Made by a program: the position numbers and the translations under genes
The notes under the pieces: generated by a model
Database searches by the model: none
Seen by the model: only the letters and a program-made list of their open reading frames with translations
What the model was told of the DNA's origin: nothing
Shown: in pieces, positions 1 through 41,511 of the stretch
Position numbering within the stretch: position 1 is the stretch's first letter
Layout of the letters: every line of letters begins with the position of its first letter
Source: a virus
Lineage: Duplodnaviria > Caudoviricetes
DNA length: 64,000 nt
Direction: 5' to 3' (one strand)
Virus record (IMG/VR): IMGVR_UViG_3300035126_000903
Coordinates: 32,001-96,000 of that record

Positions 1-42
1 GTGGTAAGGTACTTCACATATACCCAACCGTTAGTGGTAATT

Positions 43-306
43 TTAATCTTTGTATCTTCTCCATACCGCAGAACCATCAATACCATCTTTCCACATTCCT
101 TCGTCATTTTCCTTAACAGTTTTGAAGAATTCTTTAACTAAATCCAACACTTCTTTTTTATCCATTTTTACACCTTCGTAATATACATCATCTCTTTGAT
201 TTCTGAAGAATTCTTCAAAACGATTAAAACTACCACTAACATCAGATATATGTAATTTTTTATTACTTTTATCTAAGTTTTGTTCTAATTTTTTATCTTC
301 TTCCAT
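43..306 (-). CDS. Hypothetical cassette protein; reads through R'' as DVSGS
   Basis: ORF track; bounded by GTTAGTGGTA/TACCACTAAC. Confidence 0.75.
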   Translation of the reverse strand: MEEDKKLEQNLDKSNKKLHISDVSGSFNRFEEFFRNQRDDVYYEGVKMDKKEVLDLVKEFFKTVKENDEGMWKDGIDGSAVWRRYKD

Positions 307-367
307 TTTGTTGAATTTTATGTTAAAACTACATATATCTGAGTATCGTTATAAACAATAAAAAACC

Positions 368-727
368 TTAAAGTGGTGGTTCTAAATTGTCTTTTATCTT
401 ATCATAAGATTCTTTAATCGCTTCGGATAATACTTGTTCGATAGGTTTTTTACTATTTATAACAACGGATATATGAAATAAAAAATTAATAGATTCTACA
501 AACTTTCTAATTTCTTCTTCTGATTTACATTCTCGTTGAACAACACAAAATTCACCCCTAACTACTTTACAAGTTTGGGTTTCTATGTTGTAATAAAGTA
601 TTGGTAATCTACAAGGGTTTCCACATATCTCTGTATCTTCTTCACCTAAAACCCAAACTTGTTTTCCAGTGAATACATCAAGTATCTCACTAAAACCTAA
701 TTCTGTTAAATTTTGTGTTGTTATCAT
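368..727 (-). CDS. Hypothetical cassette protein
   Basis: ORF track. Confidence 0.75.
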   Translation of the reverse strand: MITTQNLTELGFSEILDVFTGKQVWVLGEEDTEICGNPCRLPILYYNIETQTCKVVRGEFCVVQRECKSEEEIRKFVESINFLFHISVVINSKKPIEQVLSEAIKESYDKIKDNLEPPL

Positions 728-784
728 CGTTCTGATTATTAATTTTTTACATTCATATATCCGCAGCCGTTATGTGTAATTTAT

Positions 785-1036
785 TCAAAAATAATCACGT
801 TTAAGTTGTTCCTCTTTAATTAGAATCTCCCTTTGTTCTTTCATTTGACCAATTACTTCATCGAAATTTTTACTCATTTGTCTTTCAAACTGATTTTCAT
901 TTTGGTAATCTAATGACACTTCGTGTTTAACATCAAATCCGTTTTCTCGTAAAAATTTCTTCAATAAGAAAATTAAACGTGATTTTCCACTCATTGCTCT
1001 ACCAGATACGGTAATAATTAATTTTTCCTTTTCCAT
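785..1036 (-). CDS. Small protein with P-loop-like motif
   Basis: IITVSGRAMSGKS Walker A-like. Confidence 0.6.
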   Translation of the reverse strand: MEKEKLIITVSGRAMSGKSRLIFLLKKFLRENGFDVKHEVSLDYQNENQFERQMSKNFDEVIGQMKEQREILIKEEQLKRDYF

Positions 1037-1065
1037 TTTATATTTGTTTTGAGTTTAATATAATT

Positions 1066-1100
1066 AAATATAAGAAATAAATTTTGATTTTCCAAATTTT
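1066..1100 (-). promoter_or_regulatory. Bacteroidota sigma-A-type promoter (related copies near 24443-24478 and 25646-25680)
   Basis: Minus strand TTGG-N19-TATATTTA. Confidence 0.6.
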
Positions 1101-1126
1101 TTATCAGGTTAACTTAAACCTACACA

Positions 1127-1182
1127 AATACAACATACTGGTGGGATATAAGTGGGTGTAAACTTCACAAATAAACGAGTTA
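1127..1182 (+). repeat. Conserved attC right-arm repeat ATACTGGT..TATAAGTGGGTG(T/C)AAACTTCACAAATAA..AGTTA (copies ~2078-2125, 2390-2446, 24504-24560)
   Basis: Four near-identical copies, each ending at a GTTA core site; 1079-1182 is duplicated at 24457-24560. Confidence 0.85.
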
Positions 1183-1191
1183 TAAGTAATA

Positions 1192-1341
1192 TTATTTTTT
1201 AATTGGTTTCTTCTTGTTCTTTTTAGGTTTTTTACATTCATCAAGTTTAGTCCCAGCCACATATTCAGCCATTTCGGGTTCATTATTAAGAAACCAATTT
1301 ATTCGGTTTATTTTTTGTTCTTGTGTTAATTCTATATTCAT
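1192..1341 (-). CDS. Hypothetical protein (start revised to MNIELTQ)
   Basis: ORF track; the upstream extension lies in the attC region. Confidence 0.55.
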   Translation of the reverse strand: MNIELTQEQKINRINWFLNNEPEMAEYVAGTKLDECKKPKKNKKKPIKK

Positions 1342-1439
1342 TTTTATTAAATTTATTTTGTTAAAAAAATAATACATACACATAACAAAGTGTATAAGTA
1401 ATGTGGCTAATAAAGTTTATCTGTAAGTTATGTGTAATG

Positions 1440-1739
1440 TTACTCACCATTATACTTAAATTCAAACAACTTTGGTTTTAATGTATTACCAATTGGTTGA
1501 ACGATTGATAAATCACTTGATGTTTCTCCGTGAATAACTTTCATTAAACCAGGTATTCCATAATTCTCAAATGTTATTTCATACAAATCGCCAAAAAATG
1601 ATGTATCATTATTACTAATTGTATGTGTTACTTCTATAACATACTTTTTTGTAGTTATCAATGATTGTTGTAAATTAATAAACCAAAGTTGTGTTCCACT
1701 TGGTATCACATACTTATCTCCAATTTTTACTTTTTTCAT
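1440..1739 (-). CDS. Hypothetical cassette protein
   Basis: ORF track. Confidence 0.75.
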   Translation of the reverse strand: MKKVKIGDKYVIPSGTQLWFINLQQSLITTKKYVIEVTHTISNNDTSFFGDLYEITFENYGIPGLMKVIHGETSSDLSIVQPIGNTLKPKLFEFKYNGE

Positions 1740-1830
1740 ATTTCATTTCTTTAATTTTAACTTTTTAAAATTTGTGAGTTCATTACTCCATCAATATCCA
1801 AGAAAATAACTTTTTGCACAGGTTTTGGAT

Positions 1831-2025
1831 TTAACTAATGGTTCTTTCAAAAACAATGAGATAACCTCCTCTTAGATGACTGCCACCACCTGTTGATATA
1901 TGTCGTGCTGTTACAGATACAATCAACCAACCATCTTCCAAGATTTTATCTATTTTGTCTTGAACATCTTTGTAAGATTCATCATCAGGAGTCACCAATA
2001 CTTTTTGTTCTTTAAGTGCTATCAT
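1831..2025 (-). CDS. Hypothetical protein
   Basis: ORF track. Confidence 0.7.
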   Translation of the reverse strand: MIALKEQKVLVTPDDESYKDVQDKIDKILEDGWLIVSVTARHISTGGGSHLRGGYLIVFERTIS

Positions 2026-2134
2026 ATTATTTTTAATTTAATCGTTCAAAGATATGACCTACAAACTCACCCCTCTGATACTGGTAGAGTATAAGTGGGT
2101 GTAAACTTCACAAATAAGCGAGTTAGCAGCAATG

Positions 2135-2335
2135 CTATGACTGCAAGCCAACACCATATCGTTTAAACCCATATTTCGTAAGTGTATAGTATTCTCCGTG
2201 TTCATTCACCCATTGATTAGGTCTTACTTCAATTAATCCTATTAGCCTTGCAAGTGCATCATATAAAGCACTGCTGCTAACATCGTATTGCTGAACATTG
2301 CCAGCTTCATCGGTAATTTCAACTTTTACTTTCAT
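2135..2335 (-). CDS. Hypothetical cassette protein; reads through R'' as DVSSS (start revised)
   Basis: Bounded by GTTAGCAGCA/TGCTGCTAAC. Confidence 0.65.
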   Translation of the reverse strand: MKVKVEITDEAGNVQQYDVSSSALYDALARLIGLIEVRPNQWVNEHGEYYTLTKYGFKRYGVGLQS

Positions 2336-2443
2336 ATCAATATTTATTTTTATTAAACATTTGTCTTTCAATTTAACTTAATACTACACAAATACAACAT
2401 ACTGGTAGCGTATAAGTGGGTGCAAACTTCACAAATAAGCGAG

Positions 2444-2650
2444 TTAGCAGCCATAATCAGAACAGACCGTTTCAAAGTCGTTCATAACAGCATCTAACAA
2501 TTCCCATTTATCAGGATTACAACTTGTTGAACCTACCAGCAAAAATTGAATTGCTATATCGTGTTCAGTTGTATGTTGACCTTTTTCGGCAAATCTTAAT
2601 CTTTCTGATTTAAGTGCCTCAATCAATTTTTGTTTTCTTTCTTCGTTCAT
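2444..2650 (-). CDS. Hypothetical cassette protein (start revised to MNEERK)
   Basis: The ORF-track extension is a translation of the attC site. Confidence 0.7.
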   Translation of the reverse strand: MNEERKQKLIEALKSERLRFAEKGQHTTEHDIAIQFLLVGSTSCNPDKWELLDAVMNDFETVCSDYGC

Positions 2651-2679
2651 ATTTTTAGTATTAAATTTTACAAAATTAC

Positions 2680-2816
2680 GGCTGCTAACACACGTTTGGC
2701 GAAAGTGGCGGTTCAGTGCTCCGCAGACACATTTGTGGTTAATCAAACATTGGTTCTCCGCATCGGCTTTTGTGGTGAAAATCGCCACCTTCGCCGAGCG
2801 TGGGAACATTATGTGC
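2680..2816 (+). repeat. Full-length Bacteroidota-type attC site
   Basis: GGCTGCTAAC-ACACG-TTTGGCGAAAGTGGCG...CGCCACCTTCGCCGAG-CGTGGGAAC-ATTATGTGC; GC-rich imperfect palindrome. Confidence 0.8.
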
Positions 2817-2820
2817 AAGG

Positions 2821-3021
2821 CTACAATTCGTACTTTGAATAAAAGGCAACCTCACCATCATTTACCCATTGGTCAATTAAGTCGCTAACATCATTAATGT
2901 ATTGTTCATTTTTACCTGCTAATTTAGTTGCTTTTAGATTTTCCCAAAATTCACCACTAAATTCATCCATATTATTCATGTAGTGAACAACAATTTCAAG
3001 TTTCTCTTTTAAGTTTTCCAT
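2821..3021 (-). CDS. Hypothetical cassette protein
   Basis: ORF track. Confidence 0.7.
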   Translation of the reverse strand: MENLKEKLEIVVHYMNNMDEFSGEFWENLKATKLAGKNEQYINDVSDLIDQWVNDGEVAFYSKYEL

Positions 3022-3114
3022 TTCGTATTTAAATTAAATTTTGTGGTTAATGAAAAGTCAGTGCATTTAAGCCTCCACTGACAGCAAGCGGCAAAACGTT
3101 AGTGATAATAAAAA

Positions 3115-3360
3115 TTAAATCAATCCTTGTTTCTTTAACATATTTACGATTGCCTTTGCTGCTGCCTTAACTGAATCAGGGTCTGTTTCCATATCACCCT
3201 CTTTCATAGAATAAGGCACATATCGTAAATATACTTCACTATCAATTATATCTTTAATCATATCAATAAGTTCTTGCTCATTTTTACTATCACTAACATC
3301 AGATATATTCAAGTTTTCTTGATGTTCATTGAGACTTTGTATGTGTTTTAAATCTTTCAT
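3115..3360 (-). CDS. Cassette protein with capsid-targeting-like leader (MKDLKHIQSLNE) and DVSDS read-through
   Basis: Bounded by GTTAGTGATA/TATCACTAAC. Confidence 0.7.
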   Translation of the reverse strand: MKDLKHIQSLNEHQENLNISDVSDSKNEQELIDMIKDIIDSEVYLRYVPYSMKEGDMETDPDSVKAAAKAIVNMLKKQGLI

Positions 3361-3369
3361 CTTCGTAAA

Positions 3370-3561
3370 TTAGTTTTTAGCTAAACTAAGAATATAATCA
3401 GCATCATTTTGTGTTGATATTTTCCCCTTTATTAGTAATTTATCATAACCTGTATAAAGTTCCCATTTATCATCATACAACAAAACATAATGTTCTCCGT
3501 TTGATTTATAACCCCCAACATATGCCCCCTTTTTTAATACGATTAATTTTTTCATATTCAT
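3370..3561 (-). CDS. Hypothetical protein
   Basis: ORF directly downstream of promoter repeat. Confidence 0.7.
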   Translation of the reverse strand: MNMKKLIVLKKGAYVGGYKSNGEHYVLLYDDKWELYTGYDKLLIKGKISTQNDADYILSLAKN

Positions 3562-3569
3562 TTTTTTAA

Positions 3570-3627
3570 CTTACATAGTAAAGATACAACAGAAAACCCA
3601 TATTTCCAAGCTTTCAATATTAAATTA
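3570..3627 (-). promoter_or_regulatory. Repeated ~60-bp phage early promoter (copies at ~7060, 8063, 8997, 9613, 9778, 36604; variants ~34795, 44036)
   Basis: Minus consensus AAAGCTTGGAAATATGGGTTTTCTGTTGTATCTTTACTATGTAAG = TTGG-N19-TATCTTTA, mostly 6-15 nt before an ATG. Confidence 0.8.
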
Positions 3628-3646
3628 TCGTTAAATTTATCCACAT

Positions 3647-5099: not shown

Positions 5100-5199
5100 C
5101 AGTCAGGACAGGATTCGAACCTGTATGTGGTAATCCTTTCAGATATTTCTCACTTACGTTTTTGCCGTATTAGCGTCTAACCAATTCCGCCACCTGACT
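5100..5199 (-). ncRNA. tRNA-Leu-like element 1, non-canonical anticodon arm
   Basis: AGTCAGG/CCTGACT acceptor, TGGCGGAATTGGTTAGACGC D-arm, ACAGG-TTCGAAT-CCTGT T-arm; best loop GCAAAAA lacks U33. Confidence 0.75.
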
Positions 5200-5432: not shown

Positions 5433-5535
5433 CAGTCAGGACAGGATTCGAACCTGCAAAGTATGGTGAGTTCATCCGTTGTACCCATACCTTTAACATT
5501 ACTACTCAAGCGTCTAACCATTCCGCCACCTGACT
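5433..5535 (-). ncRNA. tRNA-Leu-like element 2, no anticodon arm
   Basis: Same acceptor/D/T arms; centre forms an unrelated AAAGGTATGG/CCATACTTT hairpin. Confidence 0.75.
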
Positions 5536-5590: not shown

Positions 5591-5688
5591 TAGTCAGGAC
5601 AGGATTCGAACCTGTAAGTACCGACTGGGCTTATTTCTGTTTTAAATGCATCGCCTGTCCAGTGCGTCTACCATAACGCCACCTGACT
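5591..5688 (-). ncRNA. tRNA-like element 3, anticodon stem closing a ~30-nt loop
   Basis: Same acceptor and T-arm; ACTGG/CCAGT stem with expanded loop. Confidence 0.75.
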
Positions 5689-6547: not shown

Positions 6548-6578
6548 TTGTTTTGTTTTTAATTTGTTAATTTGTTTG

Positions 6579-6658
6579 TAGTCAGTACAGGATTCGAACC
6601 CGTAATATCAGCTTGCTTATTAGGCTTGCTTCTGCGCTACCAATTCCGCCACCTGACT
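6579..6658 (-). ncRNA. tRNA-like element 4, degenerate anticodon arm
   Basis: Acceptor with one mismatch, D-arm, T-arm; only 2 bp around a CTAATAA loop. Confidence 0.7.
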
Positions 6659-9699: not shown

Positions 9700-10750
9700 C
9701 ACTATATAGTAGTAGTAGAGGAGCGCTGGTGGGGGAGGTGTATCTCTCTCTATATATATAAGGACACACCCCTGCGGAGTAAAGATACAACAGAAAATCC
9801 ATATTTCCAAGCTTTTTTAAGATTATTTTTTCGTTTATTTCCCCCATACTATATAGTAGTAGAGAGAGGAGCGCTGGATATGTATCCTTATATACTATAT
9901 AGTAGTAGTAGTACAGCGCCGGTCCTTACCGCAGAAACGGTGGGTGAGGTATGATTTAAAATATGTTAGGCGTGATGTAGAATATGTTAGCTATGACGCT
10001 TCCCCTATACTATATAGTAGTAGTATATATAGTGTTATATATGAAACGAGATATGTTATATACTATATAGTAGTAGTAGAGAGAAGCGCTGAAGATTGCT
10101 TGTGTATTATATACTATATAGTAGTAGAGAGAAGGTACGCACACACAGCGCTGTGTTATATTGTAAGTGCTTATTGTTATATACTATATAGTAGTAGAGA
10201 GAAGCGCTGAAGATTGTTTATGTGTTATATTGTGTGTGGGGAGTGTTATAGGGGATGTTTTTAGTGTTATAAAATTTTCCCCAATATTTATGGAAGCTAA
10301 ATTGCTCTCCCGTCTCTCATGCCCCTCTTTCCCCGCTTTTCTTCGCAATTGAGGTATCATTATTAGTTTTGCTCCCCCCTTCCCTTCCCTCTCTCCTCCT
10401 TTCCCTTTCCTGTCTTGCTCCCTTTCTATTTTTGACAGGGTTTTTTTTGAAGGTTCATTTTAATACAATTTCGGTGTCAAATGGTATATAGTGGGGAAAA
10501 GTGGGGAAAAGTGGGAATTTTTACGATTATTACTCCATTTCTTCCTCTTTTCTTCTTCTTCTTCTGCTTTCGTTACTTATTTTTAGGTTATTTAGGTTAT
10601 TTGGTTATGGGGTATCCTATATAGTGTATTGTTATTCTATATTAGTTATATATATATATATTCTTGTTCTTTTATACTCTCTCTCTCTATATATAGTATT
10701 GTTATTATTATTTGTCTTAGTACTGCTACTATTACTACTATATAGTGCTA
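9700..10750. repeat. Non-coding iterated region: ACTATATAGT(AGT)nAG..AGCGCT repeats; candidate origin or genome terminus
   Basis: Palindromic ACTATATAGT at 9701, 9848, 9894, 10009, 10062, 10113, 10183 and inverted unit at 10737. Confidence 0.75.
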
Positions 10751-24425: not shown

Positions 24426-24572
24426 GATGTTTAATTATGGTGTAAATATACGAAGTAAATTTTGATTTTCCAAATTTTTTATCAGGTTAACTTGATCCTA
24501 CACAAATACAACATACTGGTAGAGTATAAGTGGGTGTAAACTTCACAAATAAGTAAGTTATATGAAATAAAA

Positions 24573-24911
24573 TTAAACAATAGTCCAACTACCATTATGA
24601 AGATAACATCCTTCTATAATTTCTTGTGTTTCGTTGTTTTTAATATCATATCTTGGTTTAACCTCAGTTAGATAAATTTTTCTATCAAAATAACCTTTAA
24701 TCATAATAGTTATATTCTTAACATAATCGTAATCCATATCTTTATATTCACGATATGTTAAATAACTTTCTTTATTAGTATTACCATCATATACTAAAAT
24801 TAACGGTTCTTTTGTATCTACCCAACCATTAAATTTATCATGTTTGTTTATGATATTAAAAACACCAAAATCATTACATGATACATCTTGTCCTATTTTA
24901 AAATCTTCCAT
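24573..24911 (-). CDS. Hypothetical cassette protein (start revised to MEDFKIG)
   Basis: The ORF extension lies in attC. Confidence 0.7.
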   Translation of the reverse strand: MEDFKIGQDVSCNDFGVFNIINKHDKFNGWVDTKEPLILVYDGNTNKESYLTYREYKDMDYDYVKNITIMIKGYFDRKIYLTEVKPRYDIKNNETQEIIEGCYLHNGSWTIV

Positions 24912-24936
24912 ATTAAATTTGTTTAATTTTACATTC

Positions 24937-24990
24937 ATATAACAAATGATAAACAACATTAAAACGATTGTTTATCATCAGACGTTATAT
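24937..24990 (+). repeat. Compact attC site
   Basis: ATATAAC-AAATG-ATAAACAA..TTGTTTAT-CATCAGAC-GTTATAT (R''-5-L''..L'-8-R'). Confidence 0.8.
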
Positions 24991-24996
24991 TCAAGT

Positions 24997-28054: not shown

Positions 28055-28416
28055 ATGAATATTCCGTTTAAGTATCTTGTTCTTTCTTCGTCAGTCATCT
28101 GATATGGAAGATTATAATCATCAGTTTTATTTTCTTCCAACCATTGATGTAGTTCTTCTATTGTTCTACATAGTTCATTCCCATCCTTATCTGTCATTGT
28201 TAAATCGGTTCTCTCGCCCCAATTTTTATCATAACACCACCAATCAAATGTTTCTTTTCCTTCTTTCCCATAGTAAGAACCAATCAAAAGAGAAATTACT
28301 TGTTCTAAAGTATCACAAAAATTGACAAGGTCAATTTCTGCTTTGTAAGCGGCAATAGTCTTACTTTGATGTTTTTTAAGTAATTCTATTATTTTTTTAA
28401 ATACTTCTAATTTCAT
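28051..28416 (-). CDS. Hypothetical protein
   Basis: ORF track. Confidence 0.75.
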   Translation of the reverse strand: MKLEVFKKIIELLKKHQSKTIAAYKAEIDLVNFCDTLEQVISLLIGSYYGKEGKETFDWWCYDKNWGERTDLTMTDKDGNELCRTIEELHQWLEENKTDDYNLPYQMTDEERTRYLNGIFI

Positions 28417-29555
28417 TGTTCGTTTTTAAGTAAAAATTTATTGCTGATTGCCTTAAAAGAAATTGTCCCGTCTAATGACCTAACAACAACACCTTCTCTT
28501 TCTGTTTTTGGGTTAAGTGCGGACTTTCCTTCCGCATACTGTAACATCTCTTCAATTGTGTTTGGAAGAAGAAAATTAGATTCTAGAATGGGCACAGTTT
28601 GGAGACCAATCATGAAACAAATATCCTCTAAATCTTTGATTCCCAACCTGGTTCTACTATCAATTTGATAAACACTAAAAAATCTAACAGTTTGTCCTTT
28701 TATACCATAGGGATTGCCTTGAATACCTTCACCAATCAACTCTCCCTGTAAACAGATATTGTAGCCGACTGCTCCAAGCTTTGTCTTGAGATCCAGTTGA
28801 CGAGCGACTTTCCAAAAGGTGTTCTCCTGTTTCGGTCTCTCAGCTCCATCATCGCACATTACCATTCCTGGCACAAACTCTTCAGGTTCTGCGAGCTCTA
28901 AGTTTCGCGAACAGACTCCAAAGACTCCATCCTTGAAATAATAAGTTGCGCTTGCCCCATCAAGCTTCTCAGCGACATAGAACTGGTGGGCCGAAGTCAG
29001 CTTCCACTTCTCATAGTCGTCGGCTAAGTTCTGAACTCTCTCCTCATCTGTCTTGCGAATGAATGAAGGAAAAAGACCCTTAACCTTTCCTGCGAGCTCA
29101 GCTGGGATTGGCGGCTCATACTTAACGATTTCCAAATGATTACTTACATCCGTGCCTTCTTCGATTAAGAGGGCATCATCGTATGGTCCCAGTTGGAGTT
29201 GCATGCCCCAAGGTTGTTGTGAGTAGCCGATCTTCATTTCGTCTGCGTCTTCGAGAACAGAGAGCGGAAGCAAGAGTCCTTGTGAGACTTGGCCTCTGAG
29301 CCTGATTGTCTTGAGTCGGAAACCTTCTTGGTCTCCCATCTTTTTGAATGAGCTCTTGCGTAGGAACTCAAACTCTTCGCGAATCGGAAGGAATGAATCG
29401 ATCTCACAATAGATTACCAAATCACCAACCTTGTGTTGGACATCTTTTGCCACCACAACTTTCCAACCATCAACCACCGCTAGTTCAATCCTATCAGCTC
29501 CTTCGATGGGTAAAATTTCTTTTATTCTTCTGACTGTTGCAAGTTTTCTTTCCAT
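28413..29555 (-). CDS. RNA ligase, DRB0094/Rnl2-like family
   Basis: N-terminal PIEGADRIE, KTDEERVQN, EKLDG, QGELIG, EGVV, FKAISN. Confidence 0.9.
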   Translation of the reverse strand: MERKLATVRRIKEILPIEGADRIELAVVDGWKVVVAKDVQHKVGDLVIYCEIDSFLPIREEFEFLRKSSFKKMGDQEGFRLKTIRLRGQVSQGLLLPLSVLEDADEMKIGYSQQPWGMQLQLGPYDDALLIEEGTDVSNHLEIVKYEPPIPAELAGKVKGLFPSFIRKTDEERVQNLADDYEKWKLTSAHQFYVAEKLDGASATYYFKDGVFGVCSRNLELAEPEEFVPGMVMCDDGAERPKQENTFWKVARQLDLKTKLGAVGYNICLQGELIGEGIQGNPYGIKGQTVRFFSVYQIDSRTRLGIKDLEDICFMIGLQTVPILESNFLLPNTIEEMLQYAEGKSALNPKTEREGVVVRSLDGTISFKAISNKFLLKNEQ

Positions 29556-30306: not shown

Positions 30307-30992
30307 ATTCTTTTTTCGTGATGATCTTGTGGCAGGTAAAGTTTTTTGATACCCCTTCCTGACATAATAACTTGTATCTCTTGCATAAGTAGAGGTTCGT
30401 ATTCATTACCATCAACACCAACATCCATAGCTCTACCTTGTGCAACCCTCAGGTGTGCTGGTAAGTGTGTGTGGCCGTGAAGGTGAATCACGCCATTGTT
30501 CATCCCATCCCAACTGGCAATAGGATAGTGCATGCAAATAAATTCAAATTTATTTACCAATCCTTTGTTGGTTGAGGAAGGTTGTCTTACATCCAAGTGA
30601 AGATAGTCGTGAGTTGAGGTAAAAAGATTCTGGACACCTCCCTTGTTTCTACGAATGTGATGATCGTGGTTTCCAAAAACAAGGTGAACATTTTTACAAA
30701 GGATTCTTTGCCGAAACTCTTCTATACTTTCAAATCCACCAAAAGACCAATCTCCTAAGTGGATTAAAACATCATCCTCACCTACTTTAGTATTGATATT
30801 ATCAACCAGAGTATTGTTCATGTGATCCAAAGATTGGAAATCACGAGTAACACCATCAGAGTCTTTCCAATTTGTAGTAGCTCTACAAATATTTGAGTGT
30901 TTGTAGTGGGTATCACTAGTAAAAAATAATCTTTGGTCTTTTTCTAAAATTAGTTTCATAGTTTTTTGTATTCGGGTTGTATAATTTTCCAA
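30303..30992 (-). CDS. Metallophosphoesterase (start probably 30959)
   Basis: TSDTH..H, LGDW, GNHD, HYP, HGHTH, DVGVD. Confidence 0.88.
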   Translation of the reverse strand: MENYTTRIQKTMKLILEKDQRLFFTSDTHYKHSNICRATTNWKDSDGVTRDFQSLDHMNNTLVDNINTKVGEDDVLIHLGDWSFGGFESIEEFRQRILCKNVHLVFGNHDHHIRRNKGGVQNLFTSTHDYLHLDVRQPSSTNKGLVNKFEFICMHYPIASWDGMNNGVIHLHGHTHLPAHLRVAQGRAMDVGVDGNEYEPLLMQEIQVIMSGRGIKKLYLPQDHHEKRI

Positions 30993-31975
30993 ATCATAGG
31001 GTCTATATTTTTACCGTCCAATAGACCAAATAAAATGGATGGGTGTTTGTATCTTTTAGCGTACTGGGCAAAGATAGCTCTATTTTCTGAAATTTCCTCG
31101 CCCCTTTCTAAGATTTTATAAATCCAATTATATTCATCTTTTATATCATCAAATTTAGAAACAAGTTCCATTTCATATTCCTTTATCTTATCAAAAAATT
31201 CATCAGGAACATCTCTGAGTACCTCTTCCATATTACCACCATTGGATAAAATCTCCCAAACAGATTTAGTCGAAACTTCAGTCATAATCTTATGCAGACG
31301 CAAGTATTCTTCTCCTTTGATTTTTACCCTATTTCCGTTTGAAAACCTTACAACGAAACCTTCTTGGTTGTTAGAAATTATACTCTTCAGTTGGGTATAG
31401 TCTTTAATTCCATCGTATTTTTTAACTAGAACGAATCCTTCGTTTTTCATTTCTGAAAAATCACACTCTTCTCCAGTTTGGGTATTGAGCACACCCAAAA
31501 CAACCAGTTCTTCTAAATCACCGTAATTTACTACTATCCGATTTTCCGGGTAAATAATCTCAAATAGGTAAGTGTAGCCAGTGTAAGTTCCACCTTGCCA
31601 ATTATACTTATCTAAAAGAGTTCTTCCTTTGATGGCTTGGTCGGAAGTGAAAGAACCTCTGGATGCAAAAACGGGTTGCTCCTGATAATAAAAGAAAATG
31701 CCGAGAGAACCGTCCATCTTTTCATATACTTTGAATTCTGAGGTTGGTGTGTGTTTTCCCTCTTCTAAATTGAAAAACTTCTTGAAAGGTCTAGCAACGA
31801 TATTTCCATTATCATCTGTAACCAAACCTCTACACATAAGGGTTATTTCATCCCACTTACCCTCATATTGGGTTGATTGGGAATAATTCCAAATAGTAAG
31901 AGGCAAAGATGGGTGGGTTTGTTTAATCAACCAACCTTCTTCAAAATATTTTTCTAAAGTTATAAATAAGTTCAT
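30956..31975 (-). CDS. RNA ligase, T4 Rnl1-like
   Basis: CRGLV, RPFKKFFN, EKMDGSLG, FEII, EGFVV, VKIK. Confidence 0.9.
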   Translation of the reverse strand: MNLFITLEKYFEEGWLIKQTHPSLPLTIWNYSQSTQYEGKWDEITLMCRGLVTDDNGNIVARPFKKFFNLEEGKHTPTSEFKVYEKMDGSLGIFFYYQEQPVFASRGSFTSDQAIKGRTLLDKYNWQGGTYTGYTYLFEIIYPENRIVVNYGDLEELVVLGVLNTQTGEECDFSEMKNEGFVLVKKYDGIKDYTQLKSIISNNQEGFVVRFSNGNRVKIKGEEYLRLHKIMTEVSTKSVWEILSNGGNMEEVLRDVPDEFFDKIKEYEMELVSKFDDIKDEYNWIYKILERGEEISENRAIFAQYAKRYKHPSILFGLLDGKNIDPMIWKIIQPEYKKL

Positions 31976-32250
31976 CTCAATTTAATTTCACGTTCAACTT
32001 CAACCCAAAAATTAGAAAGAGGATGATTAGCCCAATAAGCCGTTTCGGAATCTAAATCATCTTTTTTCATAAACTCAAAGATTTCGTTTACAATTGCTAA
32101 TGCACATTCTTTATAATGTGGGTTGGTTGGAATCGGTTGATATTTACCTGTGTTTAAGTCTAATTGTTTGCTTCGACTAAACATAACAGATTCTAACAAC
32201 TGGTCTGCTTTTTCTTTGGGTGTAATCCCTATGGGTTTGTATTTTGTCAT
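31972..32250 (-). CDS. TPKEKA-family phage protein
   Basis: Paralog of 8393. Confidence 0.75.
   Translation of the reverse strand: MTKYKPIGITPKEKADQLLESVMFSRSKQLDLNTGKYQPIPTNPHYKECALAIVNEIFEFMKKDDLDSETAYWANHPLSNFWVEVEREIKLR

Positions 32251-38651: not shown

Positions 38652-41511
<2,860 letters not shown>

Follow-up and report, generated by a model that had tools for sequence, protein, structure and literature searches.

A probable integron-like array of small gene cassettes on a phage contig, with related arrays adjoining a small tyrosine recombinase

The small-gene array at the start of the window

The stretch analysed here, called the window, comprises 64,000 nucleotides (nt) of a Caudoviricetes record (IMG/VR IMGVR_UViG_3300035126_000903, positions 32,001 to 96,000) and is part of a contig of 135.7 kb with a CheckV completeness of 74% (G000), the minus strand carrying every gene of the window. 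Its first 3,360 nt hold small genes together with inverted repeats and, with about 1.3 kb upstream of the window, probably constitute an array of mobile gene cassettes. The explanation that we favour, and hold to be likely, is an integron-like cassette system of Bacteroidota phages with a minimal recombinase of the Xer/IntI type, of which the window contains an integrase-less and partly eroded array; the comparison with other phage contigs suggests that a broad phage group swaps small accessory genes by such an integron-like system. Positions ahead of the window are given on L002, a locus of the same contig which spans the window start (L002 7942-8038 equals window -58..38).

Integrons, together with attC sites that fold, are a well-established kind of element; they count as bacterial and take their definition from the integrase IntI. 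An earlier note on this DNA, made from the sequence alone, had recognized integron cassettes in four 10-bp cores, each paired with an inverse core (30/231, 2122/2272, 2443/2680 and 3098/3288). All four pairs are exact, and the eight 10-mers, located where they had been reported, are each unique in the window. The inverted-repeat arms, longer than the 10 bp first noticed, reach 18-22 nt, and additional pairs are located at 348/454, at 769/1377 and, three in number, upstream of the window. Exact 10-mer inverted pairs led by GTTA and 60-700 nt apart number 5 versus a mean of 0.03 in 1000 shuffles (maximum 1), exact inverted repeats of at least 10 nt with 20-400 nt in between amount to 22, around sevenfold the 3.2 +/- 1.8 of 200 dinucleotide shuffles (maximum 9), and the local inverted repeats of the entire contig cluster at 28-36 kb, which corresponds to window -4000 to 4000. 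The word GTTA as such is unenriched in window 1-3360, with 21 copies versus 19.3 expected. A GTTA core is situated 0-16 nt beyond the stop codon, or overlaps it, in eight of ten minus-strand genes (binomial P=6e-6, the chance of a core at a random position being P=0.144), which bears out the observation that almost every small open reading frame (ORF) ends near such a core.

In the features of the array listed below, the closing helix pairs the two ends of a cassette body and the L-box is the hairpin between one cassette and the next. Designations and bit scores as attC-like derive from R1, a covariance model built only from 16 sites of foreign phages; helix scores take wobble pairs into account.

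1..38, minus: attC-like site straddling the window start (whole site L002 7942-8038, window -58..38); R1 82.3 bits, E 3e-15, with a truncated match at window 1-38
30..240, minus: cassette body enclosing most of gene 43-306, closing-helix arms 219-240 (5') and 30-51 (3'); 22 nt, 91%, helix score 13.5, minimum-energy fold
232..356, minus: best attC-like site of the window; R1 65.3 bits, E 1e-12, L-box score 17.5; order ..TAAC (348-352), GATAC, L-box 325-342/242-259, T, GTTAG (240-236); loop with the ATG (304-306) and leader codons of gene 43-306; 79% identity to LR756500.1
348..463, minus: closing helix enclosing the C-terminal portion of gene 368-727, with arms 443-463 and 348-368; score 13.0
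466..763, minus: L-box-like helix, 744-763 with 466-485 (20 nt, 85%), surrounding the start and the N-terminal 80 codons of gene 368-727; weak R1 match at 669-777 (17.4 bits)
769..1386, minus: cassette with two genes, 785-1036 and 1192-1383, flanked by the exact 10-mers GTTATGTGTA and TACACATAAC; contig pair 32769/33377
1365..1457, minus: eroded attC-like site retaining the right L-box half only; TACACATAAC, 40 nt, GTTATGTGTA; pair 1377/1427; R1 14.2 bits
2040..2134, minus: copy of the 95-nt intergenic repeat D1, after ..CTAAC; other copies 1097-1191 and 2361-2455
2122..2281, minus: cassette body and closing helix, gene 2135-2335; helix score 13.5
2443..2689, minus: cassette body and closing helix, gene 2444-2650; helix score 13.5; 5' arm in the 5' untranslated region, stop codon within the 3' arm
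2681..2816, minus: GC-rich attC-like site, L-box 2698-2710/2783-2795; R1 44.8 bits, E 4e-8
3098..3297, minus: cassette body and closing helix, gene 3115-3360 with leader MKDLKHIQSLNEHQENLNISDVSDS; helix score 13.5
24557..24992, minus: isolated cassette outside the array; attC-like site 24935-24992 (R1 33 bits, E 1e-4), then the pair GTTATATGAA ... TTCATATAAC

The single full attC that had been proposed, at 2680-2816, is thus recovered at 2681-2816 by a model built from other phages, its far (right-hand) core at 2800 being GTG and not GTT; the supposed eroded stub ATATATCTGAGTATCGTTA was misread and is actually one half of the best-preserved site, 232-356. On G000, R1 matches the minus strand only, with further sites at L002 6646-6783 (61.5 bits) and L002 7360-7417 (33.7 bits) and weak ones at other boundaries (669-777, 1365-1457, 2273-2451 and 3289-3414, 14-18 bits), and in the 58 kb of the window outside the array the site 24935-24992 is the sole match below E 0.01. 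The filter-free search found 232-356 and 2681-2816, which default filters missed; Rfam, which does not include the curated attC covariance model, returned tRNA matches only for the window. Clusters of attC sites lacking an integron integrase (CALINs) are defined by at least two attC within 4 kb and no intI; by R1, three strong sites lie within 3 kb on a contig which has no recombinase.

Ten of the small proteins have no family in Pfam or PHROGs. The small accessory genes of such arrays are likely host-takeover or anti-defence genes. The D1 repeat has a promoter-like look and shows no L-box pairing (scores 4.5-5.5). D1 was also considered as a promoter of a single-subunit RNA polymerase (..ACCCACTTATA motif); PF00940 gave no match, and the control matched nowhere either, so the search is uninformative. 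Intergenic modules such as D1, a GTCCGATGATAAACAA hairpin and the leader treated below recur across phages, as expected if the array consisted of repeated regulatory cassettes shuffled by homologous recombination, comparable to the promoter/stem-loop 'PeSL' elements reportedly present in T4-type phages. Such shuffling gives no reason for complementary arms specific to each body nor for invariant wobbles, and the homology at the 3' boundary extends over 5-7 nt only, which makes this the least probable, by our estimate very improbable, of the explanations considered.

Closing helices, leaders and the site between cassettes

The closing helix, of about 15 bp, follows the pattern GTTA[G/T]NNNN..//..NNNN[C/A]TAAC and shuts the gene body. 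Among 76 distinct elements from many phage contigs, helix positions 1-4 are invariant, and positions 5-10, which occur with 2-4 Watson-Crick pair types, are paired in 98% compared with 61% when the partners are permuted; a G·T occupies position 11 in 74 of the elements, and position 15, which played no part in selection, is Watson-Crick in 69. The other wobbles stand against A·C mismatches at about 43 to 15 by our own tally over the table of these elements. The wobbles are kept on the gene-sense strand, which is therefore the folding strand, and the wobble-aware helix score is 13-13.5 on the minus (gene-sense) strand versus 12 on the opposite one for every element, in agreement with the earlier assignment of plus as the top strand.

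The 5' arm, GTTA(G/T)NNNN(A/C)GT, sits about 20 codons inside the ORF, where it codes for ..DVSxS, or, in one case, in the 5' untranslated region, while the 3' arm is placed at or just past the stop, with the stop codon -15 to +6 nt from it. IMG/VR was scanned for the 16-mer motif that precedes the 5' arm, which yielded 115 loci with 89 distinct sites. The exact reverse complement of its own 10-mer is present 84-307 nt downstream in 33 of the 89 and upstream in one; with mismatches tolerated (74 sites), a partner arm is located downstream in 38 versus upstream in 2. GTTA[G/T] directly follows the leader in 47 of 51 sites, among which 'empty' leaders without a body number zero. The conserved leader of about 22 amino acids (aa) exists in four types, for example MKDLKHIKRFNEHQENLNISDVSDS, and is common to 203 otherwise unrelated small proteins that have no assigned family. 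It was also considered as a possible RiPP or packaging signal. The closing helices enclose not only single genes but also two-gene units, units of 600-1000 nt and gene-less hairpins of 61 nt.

The 462-kb uncultured phage LR756500.1 (L001 3500-3615) has an intergenic inverted repeat, GTATGGTTAGTTGCCG..CGGCAACTAACCATAC, whose 16-bp arms match perfectly and are separated by about 60 nt; it adjoins a gene with the leader ..KKLNISDVSVAK, and the element family therefore extends to very large phages.

From ..TAAC to the next GTTA, the layout between two cassettes consists of 4-5 nt, a hairpin of 12-24 bp (the L-box) and 1 nt, and it is present in 21 of 24 inter-cassette gaps of up to 182 nt. Along with the R1 matches in the window, this bears out the attC-like architecture of cores, L-box hairpin and asymmetric spacers that the earlier note had described. 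In 16 sites of other phages the L-box shows pairing in 96.8% of cells, both partners vary in 16 of the 18 pairs, and the covariation score of 0.712 compares with 0.186, a value like it being reached by none of 500 shuffles; slid by 1-3 columns as a control, pairing falls to 35-49%. One L-box G·U is invariant in all 16 sites (alignment A1, columns 28/143), and the loop often contains the ATG and the conserved leader. Of the attC features, TAAC/GTTA is invariant, the L boxes are paired and structure rather than sequence is kept; the full RYYYAAC is only partly preserved. Each arm of the composite site contains one invariant G·T, at about equal distance (11 to 13 bp) from the central spacer, and the folded site therefore has dyad symmetry.

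The same helices might act in the mRNA, the stem between 5' and 3' ends closing the transcript and the second stem holding the start region, for stability, processing or timed translation, with genes shuffled by illegitimate or homologous recombination, the stem-keeping recombinants surviving and the integrase serving lysogeny. Wobbles on the sense strand, the invariant G·U, the narrow range of stop codon positions relative to the 3' arm and a sense-strand fold of -76.1 kcal/mol (z -5.8) fit such a role. The fold of the opposite strand is almost as good (z -8.05), though, and helices that close two-gene and longer units as well as gene-less hairpins speak against it. This role in the mRNA is the main rival of the integron-like system, and we consider it unlikely.

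Recombinase and cassette content in related phages

A protein with the PF00589 domain is encoded in 25 of 49 other element-bearing viral records, which are mostly fragments. The leader motifs are on the recombinase strand in 38 of 38 cases and at most 5.3 kb upstream of the recombinase in 21 of the 25 records, and in all 12 regions fetched, arrays of 1-9 elements end directly before the recombinase gene. The last ..TAAC is there followed by TAT(T/A)ATATAT, 45-65 nt before the recombinase ATG, which is a candidate counterpart of attI. This tight linkage to a recombinase and an array-end site speaks against a role confined to the mRNA.

The recombinases of the relatives have a length of 264-268 aa (one ORF of 296 aa owing to an upstream start), possess the domains Phage_int_SAM_4 (PF13495) and Phage_integrase (PF00589) and show the catalytic R..K..HxxR..H..Y, with a SAM-like core-binding and no arm-binding domain; judged by sequence, the enzyme fits the 'simple' tyrosine recombinases of the Xer/IntI clade. 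Its best NCBIfam model is NF040815, 'tyrosine recombinase/integron integrase', with 168-186 bits (cut-off 220), and its best solved relatives are XerA (4a8e), IntI4 (2a3v) and XerD (1a0p). An identity as IntI, to which the earlier note had ascribed the cassettes, does not hold for this enzyme adjoining the arrays, as TIGR02249 is matched with 150-154 bits versus a cut-off of 265 and the position of the IntI extra domain is taken by 31 aa versus 79 in IntI4 (2a3v), about 48 residues fewer. A tblastn comparison of the genes flanking the array on G000 with the 12 recombinase regions gave no synteny.

Where homologous bodies occur in different contigs, the match ends 1-7 nt after CTAAC in five of five pairs; in the element of L068 orthologous to 348..463, it ends directly after ..ATAACG. 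The cassette of gene 3115-3360, which has 203 protein relatives, possesses an ortholog in L049 with a different downstream flank, and a lake-metagenome contig links L002 10122, in the body 2122..2281, to another downstream module, which is weak evidence. The Polaribacter Freya isolates belong to the closest cultured phages that carry a related integrase (36-40% identity). The seven Freya genomes examined have one backbone in common and differ in the stretch of small genes immediately ahead of the integrase, which measures 0, 842, 1744, 2216, 4040, 4635 or 4942 nt; ..AAC stands at the boundary both at the end of the backbone and at the ends of all five blocks, and the GTTAGCAGTAGT..ATTACTGCTAAC helix recurs in one Freya cassette. 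The cassette content of relatives thus changes at the core, and the boundary in these comparisons falls after ..TAAC on the gene-sense strand, within about a base of the G/TT crossover that the earlier note had assumed; the insertions and deletions exactly after ..AAC in Freya count against helices acting in the mRNA. The Freya paper (PMC8776804) gives the genome size range and reads the integrase as a sign of possible lysogeny; the terms 'integron', 'variable region' and 'indel' are all absent from its main text.

In contigs assembled from metagenomes, unitigs break at module borders and several joints are seen, with sides of 21-38 nt at 88% likeness. The depth bin of 2681-2816 reaches 49-661 in lake metagenomes versus roughly 4-63 in the preceding bin. 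In three lake-water DNA runs, the modules 2681-2816 and L002 7261-7511 show a word depth several-fold to tens-fold over that of their neighbours; both attC-like modules are therefore shared by a large number of genomes there. A promoter-like module (..ttacatagtaaagata..catatttccaagctttcaatattaaat) is directly repeated on either side of the whole small-gene array, at L002 5360-5440 and window 3550-3640, and in DNA run X14 and in RNA run X20 a contig joins 5397 to 11605 with 14 other letters in between, skipping 6.2 kb; the side of this joint spans 26 nt only, and the contig may represent an array-less variant or a different phage that has the module as well.

More than 534 bacterial loci, mostly in Bacteroidota, encode relatives of the recombinase at 41-51% identity, two of these enzymes exceeding the NF040815 cut-off. 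Arrays of the attC type are situated downstream of such genes in Flavobacterium saccharophilum, F. limicola, Arundinibacter, Desulfitobacterium and some metagenome-assembled genomes, and these chromosomal arrays may be integrons missed by the IntI-based definition. At the bacterial loci L225, L230, L233, L235, L195, L203 and L238 the arrays comprise 4-6 cassettes, with recombinases of 347-385 aa that lack the IntI extra domain. Of 26 bacterial cassettes, 24 carry their ORF on the non-folding and 2 on the folding strand, whereas 68 of 70 phage elements carry it on the folding strand, which substantiates that the phage genes are inverted compared with classical cassettes. That the same type of site occurs in bacterial arrays with the genes on the other strand argues once more against helices acting in the mRNA.

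The earlier note had left room for classical cassettes taken from host integrons and mobilized by an IntI of the host. The presence of AAC/GTT cores and of attC-like folds fits this origin, and, according to the abstract and section 3.4 of Qi et al. (2023; PMC9892861), CALINs of virulent phages, including that of a Polaribacter phage, are recombined by IntI1. Yet the phage genes are inverted with respect to bacterial cassettes, the families of leaders and payloads occur on viral contigs, the arrays are linked to a recombinase of the phages themselves that lacks the extra domain, and the portion of the IntegronFinder 2.0 paper considered (PMC9024848) reports almost no complete integrons in Bacteroidetes. 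An origin from host integrons is thus highly unlikely.

Elsewhere on the contig, three tRNA-like genes of about 100 nt on the minus strand (window 5100-5199, 5433-5535 and 5591-5688) match the Rfam tRNA model with 35-41 bits and are not called by ARAGORN, which reports only a tRNA-Ile at 6578-6658; they have long 5' and 3' repeats in common (D3, D4) and possibly contain either an intron or an extra arm of some length. Window 9701-10194 contains seven copies of the 12-bp palindrome TACTATATAGTA at a spacing of 46-115 nt and resembles an operator array or an origin. Two RNA ligases (phrog_968, phrog_562) and a GroEL-type chaperonin (phrog_5725) are encoded at 28413-29555, 30956-31975 and 39252-40874, and outside the window, L002 3193-4380 (minus) encodes a protein of 395 aa which contains three internal repeats, each about 90 aa long and terminating in ..EITLEQFREITN. 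More than half of the sampled words of the phage DNA are contained in each of 19 DNA runs from lakes or fresh water.

Proposed mechanism and comparison with known systems

In the proposed integron-like system, a cassette on the gene-sense strand consists of a 4-5 nt spacer, the L-box hairpin, 1 nt, GTTA(G/T)NNNN.., the body and ..NNNN(C/A)TAA-C, the hyphen marking the boundary; the L-box loop often carries the promoter region together with the start codon and some 20 codons of the leader. With the first and last ~15 nt of the body predicted to pair mutually, closing helix and L-box could stack on a single strand into a two-armed site with an asymmetric central bulge and an invariant G·T per arm. 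The folded substrate would be DNA, and a small tyrosine recombinase of the Xer/IntI type might bind it and exchange strands after ..TAAC, which would excise or insert whole cassettes at the conserved site just upstream of the recombinase gene; in related phages the enzyme is encoded directly after the array. The structures and their covariation are directly observed, as are the linkage to the recombinase and the cassette differences after ..AAC between relatives.

Several findings weigh against this explanation. On the G000 contig, at 74% completeness, no tyrosine recombinase, serine recombinase, Y1 transposase or reverse transcriptase was found, so that an IntI, which the earlier note had proposed for host or phage, is missing from the contig along with any other tyrosine recombinase; the array-end site of the relatives (..TAAC followed by TATTATATAT) was not found on it either, and two near-complete element-bearing records (88% and 96%) equally lack PF00589. 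The closing helices of G000 are intact despite the missing enzyme, which recombination alone does not explain, and three of its four short inter-cassette gaps have no L-box. An invariant G·U is typical of RNA as much as of folded DNA. The 5' breakpoints of shared cassettes vary, being 4-20 nt before the ATG in three pairs and at the previous CTAAC in one only, the module swapping in metagenomes is ambiguous and provides no evidence for circles or deletions, and the recombinase of the relatives, which lacks the IntI extra domain, could be an ordinary lysogeny integrase. The invariant G·U, the helices intact on a contig without recombinase and the variable 5' breakpoints are what sustains the mRNA as the place of action, at a probability that we estimate as low. 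For the integron-like system, the contig's lack of both enzyme and end site means that its array is a store which is therefore movable only in trans and partly decaying.

Other mobile or variable elements were rejected as candidates. An element resembling a retron or a diversity-generating retroelement was set aside for the lack of a reverse transcriptase on the contig, and a hairpin transposon of the IS200/IS605 type for the lack of a Y1 transposase; for an invertible segment (shufflon), the contig lacks a serine recombinase, and the reverse reading of body 52-218, inspected by eye, stops after about 29 codons.

A wider reading, which we advance tentatively and which has a somewhat less than even chance of being correct, is that of a separate, phage-adapted integron lineage, characterized by an Xer-like enzyme without the extra domain, a dyad site marked by G·T, start signals and leader inside the site, genes inverted to follow phage transcription and a shared pool of Bacteroidota phages ranging from 44-kb Polaribacter siphoviruses to contigs of >400 kb, with the related arrays of Flavobacterium and others as uncounted integrons. 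Until now, only scattered clusters of attC sites had been attributed to phages. If the integron-like explanation is true, a large phage group runs its own cassette-exchange platform with a simpler recombinase, the movement of small, fast-changing accessory genes between unrelated phages is explained and the IntI extra domain is not needed for recombination of the attC type; the Polaribacter Freya isolates represent a cultured system that allows a direct test. In the literature, no account was found of this phage cassette family, its recombinase linkage, the wobble-marked closing helix or the Freya cassette differences, on which supplements, outside the search, may bear.

At the attP of the CTX phage, an Xer enzyme acts on the hairpin of a folded single DNA strand. 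The likeness to the arrays described here is an Xer-type enzyme on a site made by folding one DNA strand; the CTX case differs in being the single integration site of a filamentous phage and not a cassette array.

Closer are the 17 CALINs found in virulent phages (Qi et al., 2023; PMC9892861), which, as far as the abstract and section 3.4 of that paper describe them, are likewise clusters of attC-type sites without integrase, one of them in a Polaribacter phage. The family of closing helix and leader, the phage recombinase at the array end and the cassette differences from isolate to isolate are absent from these two parts of the paper. The part of a tyrosine recombinase survey considered here recognizes an 'integron-like' subgroup, some members of which lack the insertion.

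The bacterial arrays of the NF040815 type have the same recombinase family (41-51% identity) and the same layout of CTAAC, gttc, hairpin, t and GTTAG, but their enzymes, with 347-385 aa, have an N-terminal extension and are encoded upstream of the array, and their genes are on the non-folding strand (24/26), whereas those of the phages are on the folding strand.

With bacterial integrons, the phage arrays have in common cassettes bounded at a conserved AAC/GTT core, imperfect hairpins of kept structure and variable sequence with R and L boxes and an unpaired spacer, two mutually complementary cassette ends with one strand marked as the folding strand, and an array that abuts a conserved site beside a tyrosine recombinase of the Xer/IntI clade. 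They differ in that their recombinase of ~265 aa lacks the IntI extra domain and is co-oriented with the cassette genes and placed after them, that the cassette genes are on the folding strand of phage-borne elements, that the complementarity of the cassette ends extends over ~15 bp or more with an invariant G·T, and that many of the sites encode the gene start and a conserved leader of ~22 aa.

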